Shown here: positions 1,934-13,612 of the stretch, piece after piece | Layout: each line of letters opens with the position of its first letter | Numbering within the stretch: position 1 is the stretch's first letter | Assembly (NCBI GenBank): GCA_964499705.1 | Contig: CAZCME010000001.1 | Coordinates: 134,943-197,242, forward strand | Source: an uncultured bacterium | GTDB taxonomy: Bacteria > UBA8481 | DNA length: 62,300 nucleotides | Direction of reading: 5' to 3' | Notes under the pieces: model-generated | Databases searched by the model: none | What the model was told of the DNA's origin: nothing | What the model saw: the letters and a program-made list of their open reading frames with translations, nothing else | Translations under genes and position numbers: made by a program

Positions 1934-1961
1934 TTGACGGTCCTCGCGCCATCGGTATCAT
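1934..1961 (+). promoter_or_regulatory. Putative sigma70 promoter of the btu operon
   Basis: TTGACG-N16-TATCAT directly upstream of the riboswitch. Confidence 0.6.
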
Positions 1962-1974
1962 CCGGTCGATTCAA

Positions 1975-2182
1975 CGCACAGGTGCCCCTTCGGGGGTGAA
2001 ACGGGAAGCCGGTGAAAATCCGGCGCGGTCCCGCCGCTGTAACCGGGGACGAATCTCCGACCCACACGATGTGGGAAGTGTCGCGGGCGCCAGGATGGCG
2101 CAGGAGCGACCATAGCCACTGGACTTATGTCCGGGAAGGCGGAGATGTAGATCGATCCGGAAGCCAGAAGACCGGCCTGAGC
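1975..2182 (+). ncRNA. Cobalamin (AdoCbl, class I) riboswitch
   Basis: AGGTGCCC..GGGTGAAACGGGAAGCCGGTGAAAATCCGGCGCGGTCCCGCCGCTGTAA, then GCCACTGG..CCGGGAAGGC and the B12 box GAAGCCAGAAGACCGGCC. It lies upstream of a TonB-dependent receptor. Confidence 0.95.
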
Positions 2183-2239
2183 GACAACTTGCGTTCCCTG
2201 CGATGGCAAAGTGGGACGGATACGACTCCGATATACGGG

Positions 2240-2275
2240 CGGGGCGTCATGCTGTGCATGGCGCCCCGTTTTTTT
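2240..2275 (+). terminator. Intrinsic terminator, probable expression platform of the cobalamin riboswitch
   Basis: CGGGGCGTCATGC-TGT-GCATGGCGCCCCG followed by T7, between the aptamer and the btuB start. Confidence 0.8.
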
Positions 2276-2329: not shown

Positions 2330-4315
2330 ATGAAGACGAAGGTCGTTACCGGATTACTGTTGGCGTCGGCGATGGTCGGCGTTGCGCGCGCTGACGATAC
2401 CCGTGCGTTGATGCTCGACGACGAGCCCGAGATCGTCATCTCCGCTCCGCGATCCTCGCGCGTGGTCGAAGCGCCTCCGGTTCAACAGGAACTCGTCCAA
2501 CCTCCGAGGGAAATACTTCATACCGGCCGTCCGGTCACCGTGATCAGTTCCGAGGAGATCGAGCGGTCCGGCGCGCGGCAGGTTCTCGAGGTCCTTCGCG
2601 ACGTGCCCGGCATCCGCGTGACGCAGTTCGGGTCCTTTGGCGGCAGAACGAGCGTTTCGTCCCGGGGCGCGGAGACGAGCAATAACCTCGTCCTCCTCGA
2701 CGGCGTCAAGGTGAATGCTCCGGGCGGCGACTACAACTGGAACGCCCTGCCGACGGACAACATCGATCGGATCGAGATCGTCCGCGGACCAGCCGCGTTC
2801 GCGCTCGGCGGAGACGGATCTTCCGCCGTCATACAGATTTTCACCAAGCGCGGTCAGGGTCCGCCGCGTTACACGCTCGCGGCGGAAGCGGGATCTTTTT
2901 CGACATTCTCCGAGGATGTCTCGGGCCTGGGAACGACGGGTCCGGCGAACTGGTCGTTCTCCCTCTCTCAGCTCAACACGGAGGGACATCTTCCGATCAA
3001 TAACGACTACGGCCGGGCTGCCGCATCGGGGCGGATCGATCTTCCGGTTTCCGACCGAACCGACGTGCAGGTGACGTTGAATCACTTCTCCGACAAATTC
3101 GAGATCGCCACGGATGTCGGCGGAGATCTGCTTCCACCATTCTTCCTTGATCCTGACGGCGCCGTGCGCGTGACGTCGACGGCGATGGGCGCGCGCGTGG
3201 AGAGAGAGATGCGCGATAACTGGACCGTCGGGCTCTCGCTCGAAAATTTTCTCGGCACGTCCTTCAATCGCGACCCGCGCGACTCACCGGCGGATGCGAC
3301 GCCGTTCTTTTCGGAGCAGGAGACGCGTCGCCAGTCGGCGGAATTGAGATCGGACCATGAATGGCGAGGATGGAAGATCGGCGTGGGCGGCGAATTCGAG
3401 CGCGAAGAAGTGCATGGCGTCTCGGTTTCCGGAGCGGCACCGACGACGACTCATTTCGGGCGCCTCAACAGCGCCGGATATATCTCGCTGGCCGGCGAGA
3501 TCAGGGAGAACCTCAGCCTGTCAGCGGGCGTTCGCCTGGATGAAAACACGCGCCTCCATCGGGAATGGAGCGCGGGAGGCGGATTGCAGTATCTCTATCC
3601 GCGAACGCGCACGACGCTCCGGCTCTCCGGCGGTCAGGGCTTCAAATATCCGACGATCGCCCAGGTCGCTTCTCAGACCGCGACATTCCTGCCGAATCAG
3701 AATTTGAAAGCCGAACACGAGCTCTCCGGTGAATTCGGAATCGATCAGCCCTTCTGGAATGATCGATGGCGGGCCTCGGTCACCGGATTCTGGGCGCATT
3801 CGAAGGACATGATCGGAAATGTGAGAGTGCCCGGCACAACCGTCTCCACACCCATGAATCTCTCGCGCGTCGAGCGCGTGGGCGCGGAAGCGACTCTCTC
3901 GTTGAAGATCACGCCCCGGTGGAAGATTTCGGGAAACTATACGTATCTCGAAACGGAGGTCAAAGACGCGGGCCCCGTCTCCAGCAACGCGTTCCTTGTC
4001 GGAGACGCGGTCACGCGGCGGCCGAAGCACACGGGAAACGCGACGCTGGCGTACAACGGCGAACGTCTCCGTGGCGAGATCAATGTGAACGCGGTCGGAA
4101 AATCGATCGATCGCGACTTTTCGAACAATCCTGTCTCGTTCCGGCTGTACGTTCCGGGCTACGCCAAGGTCGATGCTTCTCTCGAATACGACATGACAGA
4201 AAATCTGACGCTGACCGCGGCGGGCAACAACATTCTCGACAAGGATTATCAGGAGAATTACGGATTCTCGAATCCTCCCGCGAACTGGCGCGGCGGCGTG
4301 AAATGGAATTTCTGA
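2330..4315 (+). CDS. btuB: TonB-dependent cobalamin receptor
   Basis: Signal peptide; plug motifs VTVISSEEIERSG, LRDVPG, NIDRIEIVRGP; C-terminal GVKWNF; riboswitch upstream. Start ATG 2330 after GGAGGG. Confidence 0.9.
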   Translation: MKTKVVTGLLLASAMVGVARADDTRALMLDDEPEIVISAPRSSRVVEAPPVQQELVQPPREILHTGRPVTVISSEEIERSGARQVLEVLRDVPGIRVTQFGSFGGRTSVSSRGAETSNNLVLLDGVKVNAPGGDYNWNALPTDNIDRIEIVRGPAAFALGGDGSSAVIQIFTKRGQGPPRYTLAAEAGSFSTFSEDVSGLGTTGPANWSFSLSQLNTEGHLPINNDYGRAAASGRIDLPVSDRTDVQVTLNHFSDKFEIATDVGGDLLPPFFLDPDGAVRVTSTAMGARVEREMRDNWTVGLSLENFLGTSFNRDPRDSPADATPFFSEQETRRQSAELRSDHEWRGWKIGVGGEFEREEVHGVSVSGAAPTTTHFGRLNSAGYISLAGEIRENLSLSAGVRLDENTRLHREWSAGGGLQYLYPRTRTTLRLSGGQGFKYPTIAQVASQTATFLPNQNLKAEHELSGEFGIDQPFWNDRWRASVTGFWAHSKDMIGNVRVPGTTVSTPMNLSRVERVGAEATLSLKITPRWKISGNYTYLETEVKDAGPVSSNAFLVGDAVTRRPKHTGNATLAYNGERLRGEINVNAVGKSIDRDFSNNPVSFRLYVPGYAKVDASLEYDMTENLTLTAAGNNILDKDYQENYGFSNPPANWRGGVKWNF

Positions 4316-4316
4316 G

Positions 4317-4853
4317 ATGATCACGGATCAGGTCGTCCGCATCGCACTTTTCGGAGCGGAGTGGGTGATGTGGTTGCTGCTCGCTCTCTCGGTCGTATCC
4401 GTCTGGATCATCGTGGACCGAGGGATGATGCTTCGTTCGGCGCGACCTCAGGTGATCGCCGCCGCGGTCAGGCGTGCACGCGAGGAGGGAATCGAGGGAA
4501 TCGAGCCGCTGCTTGTTCGAGAGCGGCTCCGCATGGAGAACGGGCTCGGGCTCCTGGCCACGATCGGATCGAATGCGCCGTTCGTGGGACTTCTCGGAAC
4601 AGTGATCGGAGTGATCGTCGCGTTTCACGATCTCTCGAAGAATGTCATGGGAGGACCCGGCCTCGTGATGGCGGGAATATCGGAAGCGCTCGTGGCGACG
4701 GCGGTCGGGCTCTTCGTCGCGATTCCGGCGGTCGTCACCTACAACATCTATTCGAGGCAGGTTCGCAGGGTCATGGCCGAGGCCGAGGCCGAGGCGCGCG
4801 ACGTCGTCCTCGAGATGAGATCCACCGGGATTTCCATCATGGCGAAACACTGA
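4317..4853 (+). CDS. exbB: MotA/TolQ/ExbB proton channel protein
   Basis: LATIGSNAPFVGLLGTVIG and GISEALVATAVGLFVAIPA motifs. Confidence 0.92.
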   Translation: MITDQVVRIALFGAEWVMWLLLALSVVSVWIIVDRGMMLRSARPQVIAAAVRRAREEGIEGIEPLLVRERLRMENGLGLLATIGSNAPFVGLLGTVIGVIVAFHDLSKNVMGGPGLVMAGISEALVATAVGLFVAIPAVVTYNIYSRQVRRVMAEAEAEARDVVLEMRSTGISIMAKH

Positions 4854-5287
4854 TGGCCGGCATTCTCCGCGACGACGAGCCGATCTCCGATATCAATGTC
4901 ACGCCTTTCATCGACGTTACGCTCGTGCTGCTGGTCATCTTCATGGTGACGGCGACGATCATCGTCAATCCCGCTATCGCGGTGAAATTGCCGGAGGCTT
5001 CGTCGGCTGACAGCACGAATCCGGAGGAAGCGGTCGTAACCATACTGGCGAGCGGCGCCTATCGCATCGGCGGTCGGCCTGTCGAAGCGGCGGCCCTGCC
5101 CGGCGAGCTTAAATCGCTCCTCGATCGCGCGACACGCAAAGTCGTCCGAATCGAAGCCGACGAGGCCGCGGAGGTCGGGCCCGCGATCCGCGTGCTCGAT
5201 ATCTGCCGCTCCGTCGGAGCCGAAGGAGCTTTCATCGCGACGAGGCCGGTCGCGCAGAATGATGCGGCCGCGGAGGTTGTGAAATGA
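4853..5287 (+). CDS. exbD: ExbD/TolR biopolymer transport protein
   Basis: INVTPFIDVTLVLLVIFMV motif; TGATG overlap with the exbB stop. Confidence 0.92.
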   Translation: MAGILRDDEPISDINVTPFIDVTLVLLVIFMVTATIIVNPAIAVKLPEASSADSTNPEEAVVTILASGAYRIGGRPVEAAALPGELKSLLDRATRKVVRIEADEAAEVGPAIRVLDICRSVGAEGAFIATRPVAQNDAAAEVVK

Positions 5288-6249
5288 AGAAGCGGATTTC
5301 ACTCGCGGTCTCTCTCGTGATTCACGCCGGAGTGATCCTCGCACCGCTCGCCGATCCGGCGCGAGCGAAGATGCTCGATATCGTCGCGGTGACGTTTCCG
5401 GAAAACTTTCCGGTGCCTGCGGCGTCAGCTGACGAACTCCTTGCGGGGATCGATGAGGCGCTTCCCGGTCTGCCGGCCGTTGATGAACCTGACGCAGACC
5501 CTGTCGCCGCGCAGGACCAGATATATTCTGATCCCGCGCCCGCAGTCGAGGAGCCTGCTCAAGCCGTTGCAACGCAAATCCTCGCGCCGCTTCCCGCTCC
5601 GGTTGTCGAGGCGCCCGCGCCTGTCACGGCGAGCGTTCCGCCTTCGGCGGCGACGGCGCCACTTCCCATTGCGGAGCCCGTCCTGCTGTCGCGCGTTTCA
5701 CTGGAGCGAGAGATACTGGCCACGCGCGGAGCGCGAGATGGAGCGGTGTCCGGCGCGACGTCGGCGCCTCGCGAAGCTCAACCGAATTCTGAGGGGATCG
5801 GTTCGAGCGGAGGAGGAATTTCACTTGCCGAGGGTTCCGCGCGCGGTTCTGTCGAAGGCGGGGGAACGCGCGGATTTCCGAGCGCGCCATCAAGATCGGG
5901 TGGTGGCGCCGCACAGGCTGGCGAAATAGGCGGTTCGGGCGGCGGGGGAGCGGGATCGCCGGCGGTCAATCATCTCGCGATCTTCCGCGCCGCGGTCGCC
6001 AGAAAAGTCGGCGCGGAAGCGGAACGCCGATTTCAGCGTCGAGCCGTCCGCGAAGACGAGGGCCTCGTCAAAATCAAAGCGCGCATTCATTCCGGAGGCT
6101 GCATCGAGATCATCGCTGTTCTGGCGGAGAAGCCGCTTCTCTCGGACATCATCGACGACGCGGTGCGAGCCGTCGAGGCCCCCGCCCCGCCGCCGGAACT
6201 CTCGTTGCCGGTCGAGATCTCGTTCCGATTCCGGTTCGTCCTTGAGTAG
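5284..6249 (+). CDS. tonB: TonB-like energy transducer
   Basis: N-terminal TM with SxxxH (SLVIH), Pro/Ala/Gly-rich linker, TonB_C-like C-terminus; follows exbBD. Confidence 0.7.
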   Translation: MKKRISLAVSLVIHAGVILAPLADPARAKMLDIVAVTFPENFPVPAASADELLAGIDEALPGLPAVDEPDADPVAAQDQIYSDPAPAVEEPAQAVATQILAPLPAPVVEAPAPVTASVPPSAATAPLPIAEPVLLSRVSLEREILATRGARDGAVSGATSAPREAQPNSEGIGSSGGGISLAEGSARGSVEGGGTRGFPSAPSRSGGGAAQAGEIGGSGGGGAGSPAVNHLAIFRAAVARKVGAEAERRFQRRAVREDEGLVKIKARIHSGGCIEIIAVLAEKPLLSDIIDDAVRAVEAPAPPPELSLPVEISFRFRFVLE

Positions 6250-6282: not shown

Positions 6283-7389
6283 ATGATGACCGGCGCCGTG
6301 CGCATCGCCGTCTCCATGCTCGCGGTACTGGGCGTCATCGCGCTCTTCGTTATCCCGGGCGAGGGAGGCACGCCGATTCTCGGCATGCGCCCATACGAAA
6401 CGACGCGGATCGACGATCCCAACGGGCCTGGAGGCGATCCCGCGCCGGACGGATTTCCGAAGCGACTCTTCGATCCTTCCGGCGCCGAACAGATCCTCCC
6501 CGAACCGCCGCGTCGGATCGCGTCGATGAACCTCGGCGCCGACGAGATCCTCTGCGCGCTTCTCGATCACGAGCTCGACCGGATCGCCGGGCTGACAATC
6601 TCCGCGTCCGACACGAGTATCTCGAATTGCTATGATCTCGCCCCGCCGGGCTCCGCGCGTTTCGCCGGCGCGATCGAGAGCGTCATCGAGGTCGAGCCGG
6701 ACCTCGTGATCACGTCGCCCGGCACCCGCGCCGAGATCGTTCGCGCGCTCGTCAGCGGCGATATTCCCGTTGTCCGGTTCGGCCAATGGTCCACGCTCGA
6801 GGATCTGAAAGAGAACATCCGCCTGATCGGCAGAAGCGTCGGGAAGAACGAGCGCGCCGAAGAGATCGTCGGGTGGATGGAGGGGAGGATTCGCATGGTG
6901 GCCGCGCGCGTCGCCGGGCGTCCGCGTCCGCGCGTTCTCTTCTGGAACTCGACCGGTCACACGACGGGCCGGAACACGACGATGGGTCAGATGATCGAGC
7001 TGGCCGGCGGACTTAACGTAGCTGCGGAGGCCGGGATCGATCGCTCGACGCCGCTTCCGACGGAGTTCGCGCTCGCGCTCGAGCCGGATGTGATCCTCTG
7101 CTCGACCCGCTCCGTCGTCCGGACGACCCGCGGCTATGAACCCGCCGGTTCGCCGGCGCGGGAATTTCTCGACGATCCGCGATGGCGCAATTCGCCCGCC
7201 GTGAAGAACCGCCGCGTCTACGCGATCAAAGCGGGGTGGTCGACGTCCGTCTCTCATTACGCCGTCCTCGCGCTGGAGGCGATGGCGCGTGGAATCCATC
7301 CGGAGGCATACACGGACACGGATATGATGTCGGCGGAGGATGCGCTGTATACCGCTCTCCATCCCGATCTCGTGCGGCGGCCGCGATGA
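6283..7389 (+). CDS. btuF: Cobalamin/iron-complex ABC transporter periplasmic binding protein
   Basis: PRRIASMNLGADEIL, EPDLVI, MIELAGGLNV, PAVKNRRVY; context. Confidence 0.85.
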   Translation: MMTGAVRIAVSMLAVLGVIALFVIPGEGGTPILGMRPYETTRIDDPNGPGGDPAPDGFPKRLFDPSGAEQILPEPPRRIASMNLGADEILCALLDHELDRIAGLTISASDTSISNCYDLAPPGSARFAGAIESVIEVEPDLVITSPGTRAEIVRALVSGDIPVVRFGQWSTLEDLKENIRLIGRSVGKNERAEEIVGWMEGRIRMVAARVAGRPRPRVLFWNSTGHTTGRNTTMGQMIELAGGLNVAAEAGIDRSTPLPTEFALALEPDVILCSTRSVVRTTRGYEPAGSPAREFLDDPRWRNSPAVKNRRVYAIKAGWSTSVSHYAVLALEAMARGIHPEAYTDTDMMSAEDALYTALHPDLVRRPR

Positions 7390-8420
7390 AGAGCGCCCGA
7401 TTCGTTTCTGCGACCGTGCTGATCGTCGTGCTTCTGTTGGCGACGCTTCTAGGCGGAGTGCTCATCGGCACCGCGCAGATCCCCGCACGCGTTGGCGCGG
7501 GAGCGCTCGCGAAGGCGCTTGGATTCCCCGTCGCGACGACTTGGCGCCCCTGGGTCGACACGATTATCGTGGACGTTCGCCTGCCTCGCGTGATCGTTGC
7601 CGCGCTCATCGGAAGCGCGTTGGCCGTGGCAGGCACCGCGCTTCAGGGGATCTTCCGGAATCCGCTCGCCGACACCGGCGTCCTCGGAGTTTCGGCCGGC
7701 GCGTCGCTCGGCGCGGTCATCTCGATCTACTGCGGACTCGCCGCCACGACGATGTGGGCCCTGCCGGCCTTTTCCTTCATCGGAGCGACGATCACGACGC
7801 TCGCGGTCTACGCGGTCGCGACGCGTCGCGGGCATACTCCGGTCGGAACGCTTCTCCTCTCCGGCATCGCGATCGGTAGTCTCTGCGTCGCGTTGTCATC
7901 GGGAATTCTGTCGCTCGCCCTGAAGAATTTCGAGGTCGGCAAGATGCTCGTCTACTGGATGCTCGGCGGGCTCGACGGCCGCACATGGGACCATGTTCGG
8001 ATCGTCGCGGGACCGACCCTCATCGGGACGGCGATCATCGCGATGCACGCGCGTGAACTCGACGCGATGCTTCTCGGCGAGGTCCACGCCTCCTCGATCG
8101 GAGTGAACGTGCTGGCCGTCCGACGGCGGCTCATCGTCGCGACGTCGCTGATCACCGGCGCTGCCGTCGCCGTCTCCGGGACGATCGGCTTCGTCGGGCT
8201 CGTCGTGCCGCACATCCTTCGGCTCATTCTGGGTCCGGCTCACGGCCGCCTTCTGCCCGTCGTCGCTCTTTCGGGCGCGGTCTTCGTGCTTCTCGCCGAC
8301 ATGGTCGCGCGAACGCTCATCGCGCCCGAGGAGATCCGGCTCGGCGTCGTGACGTCCGTCGTCGGCGCGCCGTTCTTTCTCTGGTTGCTCGCGAAGAAAC
8401 GCGTCGAGGCCGTGATATGA
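7386..8420 (+). CDS. btuC: FecCD/BtuC-family ABC permease
   Basis: VRLPRVIVA, QGIFRNPLAD, SGTIGFVGLVVPH, GAPFFL; ATGA overlap. Confidence 0.9.
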   Translation: MKSARFVSATVLIVVLLLATLLGGVLIGTAQIPARVGAGALAKALGFPVATTWRPWVDTIIVDVRLPRVIVAALIGSALAVAGTALQGIFRNPLADTGVLGVSAGASLGAVISIYCGLAATTMWALPAFSFIGATITTLAVYAVATRRGHTPVGTLLLSGIAIGSLCVALSSGILSLALKNFEVGKMLVYWMLGGLDGRTWDHVRIVAGPTLIGTAIIAMHARELDAMLLGEVHASSIGVNVLAVRRRLIVATSLITGAAVAVSGTIGFVGLVVPHILRLILGPAHGRLLPVVALSGAVFVLLADMVARTLIAPEEIRLGVVTSVVGAPFFLWLLAKKRVEAVI

Positions 8421-9214
8421 ACGCGATCGATCGCGCGTCGCTTCTTGACGCCCGGGGTGTTCGATTCACATACAATGAAACGCCGGTGCTTGGCGGCGCG
8501 GATCTCGAGATCCGGCGGGGTGAGTTCGTCGGGCTGGTCGGGCCGAACGGCGCGGGAAAGTCGACGCTCCTGAAGTCGATCATCGGAATTCTTGTCGCCG
8601 ACGGTGGCGAGATCAAGCTGGACGGCGAAGATCTGAAGAGACTCACCCGGAACCAGATCGCTCGCCGGGCCGCGTTCGTTCCGCAGGACACCGGAATCGG
8701 ATCGGGCTTCACCGCATACGAGGTCGTCGCGATGGGGCGTTTTCCGTATCTCGGGAGGTTCAAGCCCGAGGGTCCGGAGGATCTCGAGGCGATCGAGAGC
8801 GCGTTCAAGGCCACGGAGACCTCCGCGTTCCGCGATCGTCCCATCAACGAACTCTCCGGCGGAGAGCGCCAGCGTGTCATCATCGCCCGCGCGCTGGCGC
8901 AGGACACTCTTCTCACGGTCCTCGACGAACCGACCGCGAACCTCGACCTGTCGCACCAGATCGAAGTGCTCAGCCTGATGCGGGATCTCTGCCGGAACCA
9001 CGGCCACGCCGCGATCGCTGCGATTCACGATCTCGCGTCGGCGGCCCGGTTCTGCGACCGGATCTCGATCGTGTTCGCGGGGCGGATTGTCGCGACCGGC
9101 CCGCCGCGCGATGTTGTCACTCCGGAGAATCTGAAACGGTATTTCAATGTCCGCGCCGTGGTGCGCGAAGAGAGTGGCCAGCTCATCGTGGTGCCGCTCG
9201 CCGCGGAACGGTGA
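8417..9214 (+). CDS. btuD: Cobalamin/iron-complex ABC ATPase
   Basis: GPNGAGKST, LSGGERQ, LDEPT, HDL motifs. Confidence 0.9.
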   Translation: MNAIDRASLLDARGVRFTYNETPVLGGADLEIRRGEFVGLVGPNGAGKSTLLKSIIGILVADGGEIKLDGEDLKRLTRNQIARRAAFVPQDTGIGSGFTAYEVVAMGRFPYLGRFKPEGPEDLEAIESAFKATETSAFRDRPINELSGGERQRVIIARALAQDTLLTVLDEPTANLDLSHQIEVLSLMRDLCRNHGHAAIAAIHDLASAARFCDRISIVFAGRIVATGPPRDVVTPENLKRYFNVRAVVREESGQLIVVPLAAER

Positions 9215-9367: not shown

Positions 9368-9748
9368 ATGACGCAGGAGGAATTGCTCGCGACGTTGAGC
9401 GAGGCCGTGACGCTGGGGGAGACGATCCTGATCGTCCGGAGCGAAGGCGCGATCGCGGAAGTGGTGGGAGTTCATCGATACAGCCTGTCGGACAGTTGGA
9501 TCACGATCGGCCAGGAGAAAGGTTCGCACATCCACGTGAAGTCGGCGGACGTCGCGGCGATCCGCTTCGTGAATACGTACAACGGAAAGCCCGCGAACGG
9601 CGGCCTGGAAGTGCTCGGCCACGACGATCGCGTGCTCCTCAAGATCGCGTTTCGCTCAACGAATCCCAACGGCAAGAAATACGATGCGGAGTATGCGCAA
9701 CGGGTCAACGATCGGCTCGCGCGATTCGCGTTGCCGGTAACGGCTTGA
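9368..9748 (+). CDS. Small cytoplasmic protein, putative HutX/ChuX/HemS-like fold
   Basis: Purine-rich RBS then ATG 9368. The pattern TILIVRSEGAIAEV..WITIG..HIHVK..IRFV..LEVLGHDDRVLLKIAF resembles HutX/ChuX. Confidence 0.5.
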   Translation: MTQEELLATLSEAVTLGETILIVRSEGAIAEVVGVHRYSLSDSWITIGQEKGSHIHVKSADVAAIRFVNTYNGKPANGGLEVLGHDDRVLLKIAFRSTNPNGKKYDAEYAQRVNDRLARFALPVTA

Positions 9749-9776
9749 ATCTCGACAAGAGATAAAGGAGAAAAAT

Positions 9777-10382
9777 ATGTCACAGACCATCGCGGCGAAT
9801 GTCGCGCCGGGCAGAATGATTACGTCGACGAATCTCGACGGATCGATAAGCGAAACATGGGGAATTGAGTGTTCCGAGGAGAAATTGAAGGCGCTTGTGA
9901 AGGAACTCTTCGAGGAGCATTGGAACGAGATCGTCTTCGGACCGTGCGTTCAGGGAGCGGTTTTTGAGGGGCGGATGTTCGCGAAGCCGACCTTCAAATA
10001 TCTAGACGGCTACGCGACGGTCGAGATCGAAGGGAGCGAGGGCTGGCACTTTCATCTCTGCCTCGGTCCGCACAAGGGAACGAAAAACAGACCGACGCCG
10101 CCTGAGCTCGCCGCGTGGAGAAAGTGCACGCGCGCCGCGTTCTTCCGCGACACGGACATTTCGGGCAGGCCCGGCTCGTGGGGCCTGCGGTTCTGGAACG
10201 GCCGCGATGAGCAGATGATGACGGTCTTCTTCCCGGGCCCGTGGTATGACCGCGATGCCGGCAAGTTCCGCAAGGAGCCGGACTGGACGCAGCTCGATCT
10301 CTGGATGGCGCTGCGCGAGAAATACGCGGGTGTCCCGGCGGAAGGCCCGCTGGCATCAGCGGAGGCGCCAAGGATGCACTGA
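9777..10382 (+). CDS. Conserved hypothetical cytoplasmic protein, possibly HemS/HutX-like fold
   Basis: Strong RBS AAAGGAG; FGPCVQGAVFE, LDGYATV, WHFHLCLG, WGLRFWNGRDEQMMTVFF, PDW..LDLW. Confidence 0.7.
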   Translation: MSQTIAANVAPGRMITSTNLDGSISETWGIECSEEKLKALVKELFEEHWNEIVFGPCVQGAVFEGRMFAKPTFKYLDGYATVEIEGSEGWHFHLCLGPHKGTKNRPTPPELAAWRKCTRAAFFRDTDISGRPGSWGLRFWNGRDEQMMTVFFPGPWYDRDAGKFRKEPDWTQLDLWMALREKYAGVPAEGPLASAEAPRMH

Positions 10383-10682
10383 GCTTCGCGCGGGTGAAAC
10401 TCATGCTGCGGCAGGCGCGCGTTTTATCCCATTCCTGGTCCGTGCTTCGTTCGTTCGACTTCGTGCAAAGGTCTGTGCCCGAGGAGGACGTTGCGGATCA
10501 AGATAGCGCTGACTCTTGGCCGGAGAATCTGATATCGTGAACACGATTTGGGGAGACATGAGAGGGAACCATGTGATCGGGAACAGCGGGGGCGCGAGAG
10601 ACGCGAGAATGCGAGCCTGCGACGATATCGGGCGCGAGGATCGGGAAGCCGGGATTCGCGCGGCGATCATGCCGGTCAGTTC

Positions 10683-12272
10683 ATGACTCGAATTACATCC
10701 GGACGGTATGCTGTTCTCGCGCTGCTTCTGCATTTTGCATCCGCGGGATGCGGCGCATCTTCGCCGCCGCCTTCGCCGAACACGATTCCTCCACCGGGTC
10801 CATCCCGTGCGCAATCCTTGCCCCGCTCACAGATCGGCATGAACCTGTCCGGGATCGCAAGCTACTCGACCGCGTTTCCGTTCCTCGATCTTTTCAAGTC
10901 GTCGACGCCCTGGGTCTCGGGTCACGGAGACGTATGGGATGACAAGCGCCGCATTGACGTCGACGAGCACGGTTGGGTGAAATCGCTGGCTCCGGGGCAG
11001 ATCGTTTACACCTCTTTCATTGACTCCGGTGTGCGAGCTCCCGCCGGACAGTACATCGTCGAATATGAAGGCGAAGGCGAGATCGTCTATCAAGAGGGAG
11101 CGCGCCTGATCGAGCACGGGCCTGGGTCTGACGTGATCGAGGTCGATCCCATGCAGGGCAATTGCCTTCTCGCCATCGTTTCCGTAAATCCGCGGAATTC
11201 TCTGCGGAATATCCGGATTCGCCTTCCCGTCCGGGTGCCGATGAGCCAGACGTTCAATCCCGTCTTCCTGGATCGCATAAAAAAATTCAAGACGCTTCGC
11301 TTCATGTGCTCGATGCTGGGCGACAATCCGAAACAGATCGGCCAGCGGAAATGGAGCGAGCGGCCGCGGCTTTCCGATGCCCGATGGGGCGACAAGGGCA
11401 TGCCGATCGAGGTGATGGTCGAGCTCTCGAATCGCATCGGCGCCGATCCCTGGTTCAGTATCCCTCACGAGGCGGAAGACGACTACATCCGGCAATTCGC
11501 CGCGTATGTGCGCGACAACCTCGATTCGAATCTGAAAGCCTGCGTCGAGCATTCCAACGAGGTATGGAACAACATGTTTTCGGTCCACGCGTACGCGACC
11601 CGACGCGGCCTTGAGCTTGGACTATCAACGGATCCATGGGAGGCGCGGTTACGGTACCACGCCCGGCGATCCAGGGAGATCTTCGATATCTTCGAGGAGA
11701 TCATGGGGCGCGAACGGATCGTGCGCGTCCTCGCCGCACAGGAGGATGGTCCCGCCGAGGCGGAAGCGTTGCTCGCCTATGAGGACACCGCAAGGCACGT
11801 CGATGTTCTGGCCATTGGATCTTACTTCGGTTTCGAGCTTGGGCTGCCCGAAAATCAAGCGCGCGTCTCCAGGATGACGGTCGACGAACTATTCCGCGAA
11901 CTCGAGACTGTCTCGCTCCCGTCGACGATGGGGTATGTGCGCGAAAATGCCGCGATCGCCGCCCGGTACGGCATCCCGCTCGTGGCATACGAAGGCGGCC
12001 AGCATCTCTCGGCCGTGATGTTCGGCGTCGACGATCCCGCCATTGACGATCTCTTCGACCGGGCGAATCGTGACCCGCGCATGGGTAGGCTGTACACGAA
12101 GCTTTTCGAGGAGTGGAGCGCCGCATCCCGGGGAGGGCTCTTCCTGCACCTCAATGAATGCAACCCGTTGGGCCCGTACGGTCGCTGGGGGCTGCTGGAG
12201 TATATCGACCAGCCGCGGGAGGAAGCGCCGAAGTATGACGCGGTGATGAAGTGGATGGAAGCGGGACAGTGA
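10683..12272 (+). CDS. Lipoprotein, putative glycoside hydrolase ('cellulose-binding protein'-like, clan GH-A-type barrel)
   Basis: Lipobox-like SAGC; IGMNLSG, PFLDLFK, PWFSIPH, EHSNEVWN (acid/base-like NE), YEGGQH (nucleophile-like). Confidence 0.6.
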   Translation: MTRITSGRYAVLALLLHFASAGCGASSPPPSPNTIPPPGPSRAQSLPRSQIGMNLSGIASYSTAFPFLDLFKSSTPWVSGHGDVWDDKRRIDVDEHGWVKSLAPGQIVYTSFIDSGVRAPAGQYIVEYEGEGEIVYQEGARLIEHGPGSDVIEVDPMQGNCLLAIVSVNPRNSLRNIRIRLPVRVPMSQTFNPVFLDRIKKFKTLRFMCSMLGDNPKQIGQRKWSERPRLSDARWGDKGMPIEVMVELSNRIGADPWFSIPHEAEDDYIRQFAAYVRDNLDSNLKACVEHSNEVWNNMFSVHAYATRRGLELGLSTDPWEARLRYHARRSREIFDIFEEIMGRERIVRVLAAQEDGPAEAEALLAYEDTARHVDVLAIGSYFGFELGLPENQARVSRMTVDELFRELETVSLPSTMGYVRENAAIAARYGIPLVAYEGGQHLSAVMFGVDDPAIDDLFDRANRDPRMGRLYTKLFEEWSAASRGGLFLHLNECNPLGPYGRWGLLEYIDQPREEAPKYDAVMKWMEAGQ

Positions 12273-13612
12273 TGGCGCGACGCCTCTTTTTTGTCGCTAT
12301 CGTCGTTCTGGCGGCGTGCGGCGCGGCGTCAACTTCACCGACGACGCTGGAATCGGAAAAACCGGCCGCGTCGCAACCGTTTCTTATCGGAGCTTTCGTC
12401 GGCGCGAATGTTCACGATTGGGGCGATCTCGCCGGCATGGGATCGGATTCGATCTCGTGCATCCACGCTATCTGCGATGATCTTTCCAAGATGGGGATGA
12501 ATTCTGTCTGGGTGACTGGATTCGCGCCGTTTTATGCCGAGGAACCATTGATGGGAAGCTGGCTTGATGCGGGTCAGATACTGGGCCTGAAAATTGTCAT
12601 CGAGGGAAGCGGCGAGCCCTGGTGCATTCCTCGTCTGCCCGTTGAGCAGGCGGACGAGGTTCTCCTGAAGACCCGCGAGGAGATCGTCCCCGCGTGGCAG
12701 AGCATCGCGCGCACCTACGGGAAACATCCGGCCCTGTTGGCTTACAGCCCCGTCGAAGAGATCGGCGACAACATCGAGCTGGGAGAAAACCATACCGTCC
12801 GAGCGCTCGCGGAAGTCGGTCGAGGCATTGCGCGCATTGACACCGTGCATCCCACCGTGACGATTCATATCGCTTCGTGGCACAGCGTCGCCGTCGAGGA
12901 GGCCCGGCTGCGGAACATATCCTCAAGCCGCGGGGGACTCGGCGCCCTTGTTTTCGATCTCTATCTCTTCTCACATCCCATTCCGGAGTGGTCGGACGTC
13001 GTCGATCAGAAGCTCTCCGTCACACCCGAGGAGATCCCGTCGAAGTATCTCGATTTTCTCGAACGATATGTTGTGTTGGGAGAAGAGAGGGGGGAACCAG
13101 GCAAGCCCGTTCCCGTCTGGATCATGGCGCAGGCATACGGATCGAATTGGATTCGGAAAATCGATGGCAAGATCGTCTCAAAGCCGAATTCCCGATTTCC
13201 AAACGCCGCCGAGATGAGATTCCAGATTTGGGCCGCCGCGCTTGCGGGGGCGAAGGCTATCTACTTTTTTCAGTATCATTCCACGCCTCCGCCGTCCGAG
13301 GCGAACCAGGCCGAGTTGCCCGAATGGGAGGAAGGATTCGGAATCCGACGGCTCGATGGGTCTCCGACGGAGATGCACGAGAGCCTCGCCGCCGCGATTC
13401 GGAGCATCCGCCCGCATCTGGATTTGCTGGGACGCGTTCGAATCGACGGGCCGATGGAACGGGAGGGAAATATTCTTTCAAGGAAATTCCGCGACCCGGT
13501 TTCCGGTAAGCTCTACATAATTCACCTGAACAGCAGTCTGACAGAAAAGGCAACCGGGTCTATCGGCGCTCTCGCCGCCGGCGACGGCAGGATTGTGGAA
13601 ATCGGCCCCTGA
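12272..13612 (+). CDS. Lipoprotein, putative glycoside hydrolase-like TIM barrel
   Basis: Lipobox LAAC; HPALLAYSPVEE, PVWIMAQ, EMRFQIWAAALAGAKAIYFFQY; TGATG coupling to the previous gene. Confidence 0.5.
   Translation: MARRLFFVAIVVLAACGAASTSPTTLESEKPAASQPFLIGAFVGANVHDWGDLAGMGSDSISCIHAICDDLSKMGMNSVWVTGFAPFYAEEPLMGSWLDAGQILGLKIVIEGSGEPWCIPRLPVEQADEVLLKTREEIVPAWQSIARTYGKHPALLAYSPVEEIGDNIELGENHTVRALAEVGRGIARIDTVHPTVTIHIASWHSVAVEEARLRNISSSRGGLGALVFDLYLFSHPIPEWSDVVDQKLSVTPEEIPSKYLDFLERYVVLGEERGEPGKPVPVWIMAQAYGSNWIRKIDGKIVSKPNSRFPNAAEMRFQIWAAALAGAKAIYFFQYHSTPPPSEANQAELPEWEEGFGIRRLDGSPTEMHESLAAAIRSIRPHLDLLGRVRIDGPMEREGNILSRKFRDPVSGKLYIIHLNSSLTEKATGSIGALAAGDGRIVEIGP

Follow-up and report, generated by a model that had tools for sequence, protein, structure and literature searches.

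At the end of a TonB/ABC uptake operon headed by a cobalamin riboswitch, this uncultured bacterium encodes two small proteins, P0001 and P0002, that resemble haem carriers, raising the question of what ligand they would handle in such a setting. The original prediction, made from the window (the whole stretch of 62,300 nucleotides analysed here), proposed that they are distant paralogues related to HutX and HemS, which could act as cytosolic corrinoid chaperones or ligand-remodelling proteins. The genomic context collected below suggests cobalt, not haem. Moreover, as their relatives occur alongside the synthesis or uptake of B12 or alongside a cobalt enzyme, the two proteins probably represent an undescribed kind of intracellular handler of cobalt compounds.

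The operon and its transcription signals

The operon's features are listed in Table 1. The predicted upstream cobalamin riboswitch was recovered across its full covariance model, and the promoter match before it was the single site found in a scan where 0.2 were expected. Between the aptamer and the first gene, a hairpin with a folding energy of -34 kcal/mol (z -5.4; none of 200 shuffles folded equally well) is likely the expression platform of the riboswitch; its U run (2269-2275) was read from the sequence, and the pattern scan did not list the hairpin.

Table 1. Features of the riboswitch operon, in window positions
Feature	Position	Strand	Remarks
Sigma-70-like promoter match	1934..1961	+	TTGACG-16-TATCAT; 10/12 positions; consensus match only
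Cobalamin riboswitch aptamer	1963..2194	+	RF00174, 107.6 bits (gathering 31.5), full model 1-189
Terminator-like hairpin + U7 tract	2237..2275	+	Between aptamer and first gene
TonB-dependent outer-membrane receptor (BtuB-like)	2330..4315	+	Plug + TonB_dep_Rec_b-barrel domains
ExbB	4317..4853	+	MotA_ExbB, 106 bits
ExbD	4853..5287	+	ExbD, 87 bits, last 124 residues of frame 4361-5287; start approximate
TonB-like protein (putative)	5284..6249	+	Named by position and Pro/Ala-rich make-up only
Periplasmic binding protein, Peripla_BP_2 (BtuF/haem/siderophore type)	6283..7389	+	107 bits
FecCD-type permease (BtuC-like)	7386..8420	+	FecCD, 287 bits
ABC ATPase (BtuD-like)	8417..9214	+	NF007082
P0001	9368..9748	+	126 aa, ChuX/HutX-fold protein; Pfam ChuX_HutX match, model pLDDT 89
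P0002	9777..10382	+	201 aa, DUF7676 (PF24724), ChuX/HutX fold; model pLDDT 91

The best NCBIfam matches of the receptor (TonB-B12, TIGR01779, 180.8 bits), the permease (BtuC, NF007081, 281 bits) and the ATPase ('corrinoid ABC transporter ATPase', 288.7 bits) are all of B12 type and all below their cut-offs (599.7, 461 and 537, respectively); BtuB is among the receptor's best solved relatives. The binding protein scores best against a non-B12 type (TIGR04281, 129.7 bits) and reaches 22.6 of 234 bits against BtuF; since its relatives include binders of haem and of siderophores as well as BtuF, its ligand is not readable from sequence. The TonB-like protein had no family match in Pfam and NCBIfam profile searches. 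That the transporter proteins fall below every NCBIfam B12 cut-off counts against a corrinoid reading. The genome of the window has a single FecCD/binding-protein system, namely this operon. It also has its own Cbi enzymes (CbiX, CbiD and CbiC, with no CbiM match and one NicO match), so that B12 itself as the imported cargo stays putative. A second cobalamin riboswitch of this genome heads a radical SAM/SPASM gene and was set aside as unrelated to the pair.

The positions and frames of the two small genes after btuD were correctly called, as were their good ribosome binding sites, the purine runs GGAAAGGAAG and AAGGAG, which stand 7-10 nt 5' of the ATGs. No signal peptide is apparent: both N-termini are polar by eye and already lie within the fold in the models. 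The genes through the ATPase overlap or stand at most 33 nt apart, and the 153-nt gap before P0001 is the operon's largest; it holds no promoter-like or terminator-like site, and folds no better than shuffles. The hairpin after P0002 is not significant, and two terminator-like matches inside P0002, at the shuffle expectation, were rejected. From this arrangement, P0001 and P0002 would be the final genes of a TonB/ABC import operon attenuated by its B12 riboswitch, with presumed co-transcription across the gap.

Two distant predicted members of the ChuX/HutX/HemS fold

Structure prediction, compared by Foldseek as had been proposed, places both proteins in the HutX/HemS-type fold with a probability of 1.00, and the models, each confident, contain a single domain, unlike the tandem HemS/ChuS/PhuS proteins. 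P0001 exceeds the Pfam cut-off for ChuX_HutX (PF06228; 29.7 bits vs 25), but it reaches 12.8 bits against the HutX equivalog (TIGR04108, cut-off 110), 21.3 bits against HemS/ChuS/PhuS (PF05171, cut-off 24) and 23.5 bits against the LFE_1968-like family (PF22684, cut-off 27). P0002 has no match to PF06228 at E values up to 1, to TIGR04108 or to PF05171; it instead matches DUF7676 above the cut-off, at 192.1 bits, with residues 19-183 on positions 5-166 of the 166-position model. The best structural match of the P0001 model is 3na2 (E 2.9e-6, TM 0.70), a PF22684 protein with no assigned function, followed by ChuX, HutX and HemS, with TM values of 0.67-0.72 against 6u9j, 2ovi and 5exv. The P0002 model aligns in VIA-align at Z 10-11 to 2hqv, 2ph0, ChuX, 3na2 and HutX, and at Z 6.6-8.7 to HemS/ChuS/PhuS (2j0p, 1u9t and 4mf9), the next unrelated row having a Z of 3.3; for ChuX of E. 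coli O157:H7 (2ovi, 6u9j) and HutX of Vibrio cholerae (5exv), the values are Z 10.0-10.3 and rmsd 3.1-3.3 over 135-137 residues. A sequence search against solved structures returned nothing for P0002 alone or for the A2 profile, and the sole phmmer match of P0001, to paratox (E 0.87), was dismissed as chance.

The ordered pattern claimed to be common to both proteins is borne out by hhalign of the two family alignments, which sets AIAEV against GAVFEG and SHxH against WHFH, with the two strands after the His motif also in register. The alignment is marginal on sequence alone (E 0.0016, probability 16%), and pairwise BLASTP gives an E of 0.053. Three observations nevertheless carry the shared pattern beyond chance: the motif residues are the invariant ones within each family, the two proteins independently model as the same fold, and PF22684 bridges them, scoring 23.5 bits with P0001 while its proteins weakly match DUF7676 (E 9e-5). 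P0001 and P0002 are accordingly distant homologues, in support of the paralogy that had been suggested.

The Glu strand and the His-x-His strand hold the most conserved residues of both families. In P0001, the invariant residues are E31, W44, E50, H54 and H56, with E31, H54 and H56 kept in 16/16 relatives. P0002 carries E64, H91-x-H93-x-C95, C57, C117 and a C-terminal His; across 82 DUF7676 proteins, H91, H93 and C95 are present in all and E64 in 81, as are Y79, T81, R115, W135, R138 and N141 (82/82) and D77 and Q146 (81/82), while Cys117 (42/82) and the C-terminal His (40/82) mark the clade of P0002. Identity among the 118 aligned homologues is 52-83%.

The same two strands form the predicted interface of a P0001-P0002 complex (P0002 residues 55-66, 86-95, 114-117 and 139-148 with P0001 residues 23-34 and 52-58), which has an ipSAE of 0.72 vs 0.13 for the best control; of solved complexes, 116 of 157 attained this ipSAE mark, compared with 2 of 215 mismatched pairs. 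At least 91% of contacts are common to the runs, with a partner pLDDT of at least 85. ChuX dimerises into a ChuS-like body, and both ChuX dimers and HemS-type two-domain proteins have been structurally solved, so the complex score may only mirror that likeness. Likewise, because the conserved residues lie within the predicted interface, they may be structural.

Genomic contexts of the relatives

All ten strong P0001 relatives with a readable context lie within B12 synthesis clusters of the form CbiX-DUF3209-flavoreductase-X-CbiD-CbiC, and a FAD_binding_6 reductase adjoins the P0001-type gene in 10/10 of these modules. In particular, 301 Nitrospirota genomes gave nine strong matches, every one in CbiX-DUF3209-FAD_binding_6-X-CbiD-CbiC, and at L048 a cobalamin riboswitch stands upstream of the Cbi cluster. 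Among 401 Planctomycetota genomes there were two matches, one with an unreadable context and the other in the same Cbi module, preceded by a riboswitch and accompanied by FecCD and ABC genes; at L098, FecCD and ABC genes lie within one riboswitch operon with cbi genes. As a single-protein query in a metagenome scan, P0001 found no relatives. One relative bears the source name 'hemin-degrading factor'.

The 80 DUF7676 loci divide differently. TonB/ABC uptake operons account for 34, of which 26 are preceded on the same strand by a cobalamin riboswitch (17 confirmed by Rfam and nine on our own nhmmer model, three of the nine being weak). Of the remaining eight, seven lie on contigs that break off within ~1 kb 5' of the first gene visible in the operon; the other, L061, has no more than 499 nt before DUF7676, and a riboswitch lies just downstream of this gene. 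Another 25 of the 80 loci stand directly beside nitrile hydratase beta-alpha-accessory genes, without a transporter, and the alpha subunit in 24 of them carries CTLCSCY, which we take to be the cobalt-type motif; Rfam found no cobalamin riboswitch in the seven such loci scanned (7/7). A quick tree places P0002 in the nitrile hydratase-associated clade (SH-aLRT 98). Since nitrile hydratase of the type taken to be marked by this motif is a non-corrin cobalt enzyme, the DUF7676 family is cobalt-centred rather than strictly cobamide-centred.

The proposed comparison of homologue contexts therefore favours B12 for the riboswitch-linked DUF7676 loci and the P0001 relatives. Relatives from the two families lay within cbi clusters or in operons with a B12 riboswitch or with nitrile hydratase, and no haem context was seen around them, with haem marker genes lying outside the explicit screen. 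A P0001-type gene occurs in one of the 80 DUF7676 loci, there in a separate operon; that the two families rarely meet counts against a corrinoid reading. Of five genomes examined from the window's phylum, only this one has DUF7676.

Two fusions extend the contexts of DUF7676: one to CbiE (NF004457, 330 bits, cut-off 302), which backs a link to cobalt tetrapyrroles, and one to a MerR-type HTH (P0103), whose best NCBIfam match is CarH at 43.8 bits, far under the cut-off of 400. Further, in 20 loci the accessory protein of nitrile hydratase carries a fused Cys-rich domain, which also stands alone after uptake genes in four loci (L049, L057, L059 and L064); as this domain has no Pfam match, it is not called a ferredoxin. 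In nitrile hydratase loci, DUF7676 is preceded by a conserved gene (L010:9229-9957), which was rejected as a P0001 analogue. It has no family match, and shows a Cys/His/Asp pattern by eye.

Candidate functions

We tentatively favour the reading that P0001 and P0002 accept or chaperone cobalt tetrapyrroles in the cytoplasm, as part of a branch of the haem-carrier fold that is centred on cobalt. The two proteins would pair through the Glu and His-x-His strands into a pseudo-symmetric heterodimer, and this heterodimer, or each protein as a homodimer, would receive a cobalt tetrapyrrole from the BtuCD-like importer in the cytoplasm. The corrinoid could be held in a ChuX-type pocket, where H91, H93 and C95 of P0002 and H54 and H56 of P0001 may contact the cobalt, and the dimer would shield it and hand it on to activating or using enzymes. 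The predicted corrinoid chaperone thus keeps the support of the fold, the B12 contexts and the CbiE fusion; in its strict form it leaves unexplained the 25 loci beside nitrile hydratase, which count against it.

Those loci are what a cobalt-ion metallochaperone or supply factor would explain. Here the Glu/His-x-His(-x-Cys) site, with Cys117 and the C-terminal His in P0002's clade, would bind Co(II)/Co(III), and the protein would pass the metal to nitrile hydratase or to chelatases of the CbiX type. The riboswitch operon would then provide the cobalt, perhaps in chelated form, that goes into the B12 made by the cell itself. The His-x-His-x-Cys ladder with its Glu does resemble a metal-ion site, which counts against the corrinoid reading, and its residues are those kept in nearly every DUF7676 protein. 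The Cys-rich domains, the genome's own Cbi enzymes without a CbiM match and the L098 operon, which joins uptake to cbi genes, are also in keeping with cobalt supply, and the dual context of B12-regulated operons and cobalt nitrile hydratase is that of the cobalt NiCoT transporters, according to a review (PMC7689651). We nonetheless consider a cobalt-ion role rather unlikely, given that the CbiE fusion indicates cobalt-precorrin, not free cobalt. To our knowledge, every characterised member of the fold (ChuX, HutX and HemS) binds a tetrapyrrole; Peripla_BP_2/FecCD importers handle chelates (B12, haem and siderophores among them) rather than free ions, and we know of no cobalt-chelate importer of this type.

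ChuS and HemS degrade haem, and by analogy the pair could carry out redox chemistry on cobalt tetrapyrroles or otherwise process them (for example as a corrinoid Co(III) reductase, as a dealkylase/decyanase or by opening the ring), together with a small iron-sulfur partner. Some twelve polar residues (near-)invariant across phyla at the identities given above suggest an active site more than they do a carrier, the FAD_binding_6 reductase adjoins every P0001-type gene of the cbi modules, Cys-rich domains neighbour DUF7676, and in the Atlas a cyanobacterial cluster of 288 aa, all of whose members carry DUF7676, has 2Fe-2S_thioredx in 11%, which is a lead only. Such an enzyme is improbable: the analysis found no catalytic motif belonging to any known enzyme family, the iron-sulfur nature of the Cys-rich domain is putative, and the window encodes neither a ferredoxin nor a reductase beside the pair. 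Quite improbable, too, is a cobalt branch of the HemS/ChuX fold whose role with cobalt would parallel that of HemS/ChuS with iron, taking an imported or biosynthetic cobalt tetrapyrrole and handing over or liberating its cobalt; if true, the uptake of corrinoids would be tied to the loading of cobalt into non-corrin enzymes, nitrile hydratase for instance, and imported corrinoids would be a source of cobalt as well as a cofactor. That the proteins are ordinary haem carriers with true ChuX/HutX function, beside a B12 operon by chance or transcribed from the 153-nt gap, is very improbable in view of P0001's score against the HutX equivalog, the ten cbi clusters, the 26 riboswitch-linked DUF7676 loci, the single uptake system of this genome and the lack of a promoter-like site in the gap, even though P0001 passes the Pfam ChuX_HutX cut-off, one relative is named for hemin degradation and the gap is the widest of the operon. 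The MerR-type fusion, with its resemblance to the B12-dependent repressor CarH, would suit a module that senses corrinoid or cobalt and modulates an importer or regulator rather than carrying cargo; it forms one clear HTH-fusion cluster among the 120 homologues listed, and stand-alone DUF7676 dominates, amid transport or enzyme genes, making a sensor very improbable.

Relation to known systems

Under the favoured acceptor reading, the closest known systems are ChuX and HutX, which share the pair's fold and similar size, the absence of a signal peptide by eye and, at the gene level, the closing position in a TonB/ABC operon for tetrapyrrole uptake; the predicted pairing is also that of the ChuX dimer. 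They differ in that the pair lies under a cobalamin riboswitch, not iron or haem control, that P0001 fails the HutX equivalog and P0002 lacks a PF06228 match, and that the Glu/His-x-His(-x-Cys) residues with cbi, B12-uptake and nitrile hydratase contexts belong, as far as we know, to the pair's families and not to ChuX/HutX. The predicted heterodimer would set two HemS/ChuS-like halves side by side, whereas these halves come from two genes of unequal length (126 + 201 aa), and haem degradation is not implied. PF22684 has VAE and WHxHC motifs in register with those of P0001; in contrast, at the three of its loci examined the neighbours are an HAD hydrolase and an Slp lipoprotein, and B12 genes are absent from the surrounding 1.5 kb. 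CobE and the eukaryotic CblC/CblD, which hold or process cobalt tetrapyrroles between enzymatic or transport steps, offer a functional analogy with unrelated folds, and had no sequence or structural match in this analysis. The genes of cobalt NiCoT permeases (e.g. NhlF) lie in B12 operons or beside cobalt nitrile hydratase (PMC7689651), the same split as DUF7676; however, NiCoTs are membrane transporters of free Co(II), while DUF7676 is soluble with a tetrapyrrole-carrier fold.

The literature search found no description of DUF7676 or LFE_1968, nor of HutX with a cobalamin riboswitch; the accessible portions of the sources held nothing relevant tying ChuX to cobalamin or HemS to corrinoids, and on DUF3209 only an unrelated topic. 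Eukaryotes have the B12 chaperones CblC and CblD, and we know of no dedicated chaperone described for bacteria between the BtuCD importer and the user enzymes. Through their tetrapyrrole-carrier fold, together with the B12 riboswitch operons, cbi clusters and CbiE fusion, the P0001 and DUF7676 families are concrete, clonable candidates for this post-import step. The tie to nitrile hydratase was unexpected, and makes DUF7676 a new candidate maturation factor for an industrially used cobalt enzyme.

Genomic organization of the operon

The plus-strand operon in the window starts with leader elements, followed by transport genes (TonB-dependent receptor, ExbB, ExbD, TonB-like protein, Peripla_BP_2 binding protein, FecCD permease and ABC ATPase, in that order) and then by the genes for P0001, a ChuX/HutX-fold protein, and P0002, a DUF7676 (PF24724) protein. 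From receptor to ATPase, each gene overlaps the next or is separated from it by no more than 33 nt; the TonB-like protein had no match in a family search. A scan of the gap ahead of P0001 found no promoter-like site, terminator-like site or unusual fold, and sequence inspection places a purine-rich site ahead of the ATG of P0001 and of P0002, whose N-termini are polar. Past P0002 are two long plus-strand ORFs (10548-13612; 574 and 453 aa), the second overlapping the first by 22 nt, without a match in a Pfam search.

In the host genome (96% complete), this operon is the sole FecCD/binding-protein system, P0001 and P0002 are single-copy, and CbiX, CbiD and CbiC are encoded on a different contig. 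Searches of the genome returned no match for CbiM, one for NicO and, by tblastn, none for nitrile hydratase. Its second cobalamin riboswitch lies ahead of a radical SAM/SPASM gene, and genes for an ECF sigma and an anti-sigma factor come next.

Features of the operon and of related loci (L-numbered loci carry relatives or riboswitches; G000 is the host genome)
Feature	Position	Strand	Remarks
Promoter-like site	1934-1961	+	opens operon
Cobalamin riboswitch	1963-2194	+	RF00174, 107.6 bits
Strong hairpin and U7 tract	2237-2275	+	-34 kcal/mol, z -5.4; bases read from sequence
P0001	9368-9748	+	126 aa; 153-nt gap 5' of gene
P0002	9777-10382	+	201 aa; starts 28 nt past P0001
Second cobalamin riboswitch	L100:9709-9907 = G000:C1:454508-454706	-	59.7 bits; outside window
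CbiX...CbiC module	L048:11973-15757; L082-L090; L098:7282-12788
Paired cobalamin riboswitches	L046:1565-2763; L048:3357-4148; L049:5413-6725
Cys-rich domain	L010:11860-12420; L059:4238-4801; L064:2456-2899; L049:13398-14330; L057:5402-6352

Fold and homology of P0001 and P0002

P0001 exceeds the Pfam ChuX_HutX cut-off (29.7 vs 25 bits), falls slightly below those of LFE_1968-like (23.5 of 27) and HemS (21.3 of 24), and does not reach the HutX equivalog (12.8 of 110); P0002 is DUF7676 over its full length (192 bits). The AlphaFold2 models are confident (pLDDT 89 from 16 sequences for P0001 and 91 from 118 sequences for P0002), and Foldseek assigned each to the ChuX/HutX/HemS fold with a probability of 1.00. 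In particular, VIA-align of the P0002 model gave Z scores of 10-11 against 2hqv, 2ph0, ChuX, 3na2 and HutX and of 6.6-8.7 against HemS, ChuS and PhuS domains; the first row without such a relation came at a Z of 3.3.

Sequence comparison on its own gives marginal similarity between P0001 and P0002, with a BLASTP E of 0.053 and an hhalign E of 0.0016 (probability 16%). In register, the hhalign alignment matches exactly that of the original prediction, which had noted a shared, ordered Glu-strand and His-x-His pattern. The residues of this pattern coincide with the invariant positions: E31, H54 and H56 occur in 16/16 P0001 relatives, and E64 in 81 and H91, H93 and C95 in all 82 of 82 DUF7676 proteins (81 loci). 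In the solved protein 3na2, VAE and WHLHC stand in the matching register, and LFE_1968-like proteins weakly match DUF7676 (E 9e-5). Because of this register, the invariant residues, the 3na2 motifs and the LFE_1968-like bridge, we accept the proposed relatedness of P0001 and P0002 as distant homologues.

Genomic contexts of the two families

The P0001 family is rare, with 18 matches at E <= 0.001 in a search of 1.84 billion representatives. Across 301 Nitrospirota genomes, 13 have a P0001-type match; the match is strong in nine, and all nine strong matches (X) lie inside the arrangement CbiX, DUF3209, FAD_binding_6 reductase, X, CbiD, CbiC, with Pfam names taken from L048, where a cobalamin riboswitch heads the cbi cluster. 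The four genomes with weak matches yielded five loci; Pfam, applied to three of these (L093-L095), identified LFE_1968-like proteins adjoining HAD hydrolase and Slp genes. Two of 401 Planctomycetota genomes have a match, one within the same cbi module with FecCD and ABC genes downstream of a riboswitch, and the other at the end of a contig. The module, with its ChuX-like gene, is common to Nitrospirota and one Planctomycetota genome; its CbiX has a thioredoxin-like 2Fe-2S tail, and DUF3209 and the reductase are likewise uncharacterised B12-cluster genes.

For DUF7676, six-frame ORFs of 80 genome loci (nine too short for a context call) were searched with the window's proteins and the L010 nitrile hydratase proteins, and riboswitches with an nhmmer model from Rfam-placed copies. 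In 34 loci, DUF7676 is linked to genes for a TonB receptor and/or a binding protein, FecCD and ABC; in 26 of these 34, a same-strand cobalamin riboswitch lies upstream. Rfam confirmed 17 of these 26, including 12/12 nhmmer hits in 10 loci; the other nine rest on our nhmmer model and are weak in L047 (Rfam 24.7 bits, below threshold), L050 and L051. For seven of the eight remaining transporter-linked loci, the contig breaks off within ~1 kb ahead of the first gene visible in the operon; the eighth (L061) has only 499 nt upstream of DUF7676 and a riboswitch just downstream of it.

In 25 of the 80 loci, DUF7676 directly adjoins nitrile hydratase beta, alpha and accessory genes (in L010, TIGR03888 260.8, TIGR01323 267.2 and TIGR03889 66.5 bits). 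The alpha subunit carries CTLCSCY, which we take to be the cobalt-type signature, in 24 of these 25, and an Rfam scan of seven such loci found no cobalamin riboswitch in any. L044 and L080 have a nitrile hydratase fragment at the contig edge, five loci have only the conserved partner gene described below, and five have no such neighbours. In a quick tree, a 38-row clade (SH-aLRT 98) contains the nitrile hydratase loci as a subclade, together with P0002 and four Sorangium loci of B12 context; elsewhere the tree has, for the most part, B12 uptake context. P0002's clade shows that the DUF7676 family is cobalt-centred, not B12-only.

Further, a search of longer proteins found one form of a CbiE-DUF7676 fusion (NF004457, 330 bits, cut-off 302). 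The homologue P0103 fuses DUF7676 to a MerR HTH whose best match, CarH, is far under the cut-off. DUF7676 is present throughout an Atlas cluster of 288-aa cyanobacterial proteins, 11% of which also carry 2Fe-2S_thioredx, a lead only.

Predicted pairing and role

Complex prediction for P0002 with P0001 gave a score of 0.72, compared to 0.13 for the best control; this mark was reached in 116/157 solved complexes and 2/215 mismatched pairs. Contact agreement between runs was at least 91% and partner pLDDT at least 85. In the predicted interface, each protein's Glu strand lies against its partner's His-x-His strand (P0002 62-66 with P0001 53-56; P0002 91-95 with P0001 27-31). Because ChuX dimers and two-domain HemS-type proteins have solved structures, the high score may reflect only likeness to them. 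Both families occur together in just 1 of 80 DUF7676 loci, in separate operons, and each is probably also homodimeric.

Neighbourhood, riboswitch and one fusion link both families to cobalt tetrapyrrole genes, and every characterised member of the fold, to our knowledge, binds tetrapyrroles; for these reasons, P0001 and P0002 are most likely candidate cytoplasmic acceptors or chaperones for corrinoids, whose cobalt would lie near their His, Cys and Glu residues. The corrinoid-chaperone role first proposed is thus favoured by the riboswitch, cbi and CbiE-fusion ties, but not as that of a strictly B12 family, since the nitrile hydratase clade includes P0002. The same clade also fits a cobalt-ion chaperone, a serious rival because NiCoT cobalt transporters are described with the identical context split between B12-regulated operons and cobalt nitrile hydratase genes (PMC7689651). 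An enzymatic function is possible. Plain haem proteins are unlikely. ChuX/HutX, the closest known proteins together with HemS/ChuS, the two-domain counterpart of the fold, are alike in fold and place in an uptake operon, whereas the regulon, motifs and contexts of P0001 and P0002 differ. A literature search found no relevant paper on these families or their B12 link; what this analysis adds is that a second family, the P0001 type, sits in cbi clusters, that the two proteins are predicted to pair via conserved motifs, and that DUF7676 is linked to nitrile hydratase.

Additional features of DUF7676 loci

In nitrile hydratase loci, a conserved gene (L010:9229-9957, with 27 further ORF hits) immediately precedes DUF7676; in five loci without nitrile hydratase genes, its counterpart lies just downstream of DUF7676 or overlaps it. 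It had no Pfam or NCBIfam match; by eye, its Cys/His/Asp pattern resembles a transglutaminase-type fold. In 20 loci, the nitrile hydratase accessory protein has the Cys-rich domain CxGCCCG...CLGPC, without a match in a Pfam search, fused to its N-terminus; in L049, L057, L059 and L064 the domain stands on its own past B12-riboswitch uptake genes.

Several Nitrospira loci have two same-strand cobalamin riboswitches ahead of the TonB receptor, spaced ~0.4-1 kb from each other. A Methylococcaceae locus (L077) has two DUF7676 copies (5375-6013 and 9869-10546), the second split in two adjacent frames (9869-10153 and 10157-10546) and perhaps broken. A c-di-GMP-I riboswitch (L003:917-999, 43.4 bits) lies ~9 kb ahead of a DUF7676 locus of the nitrile hydratase type.
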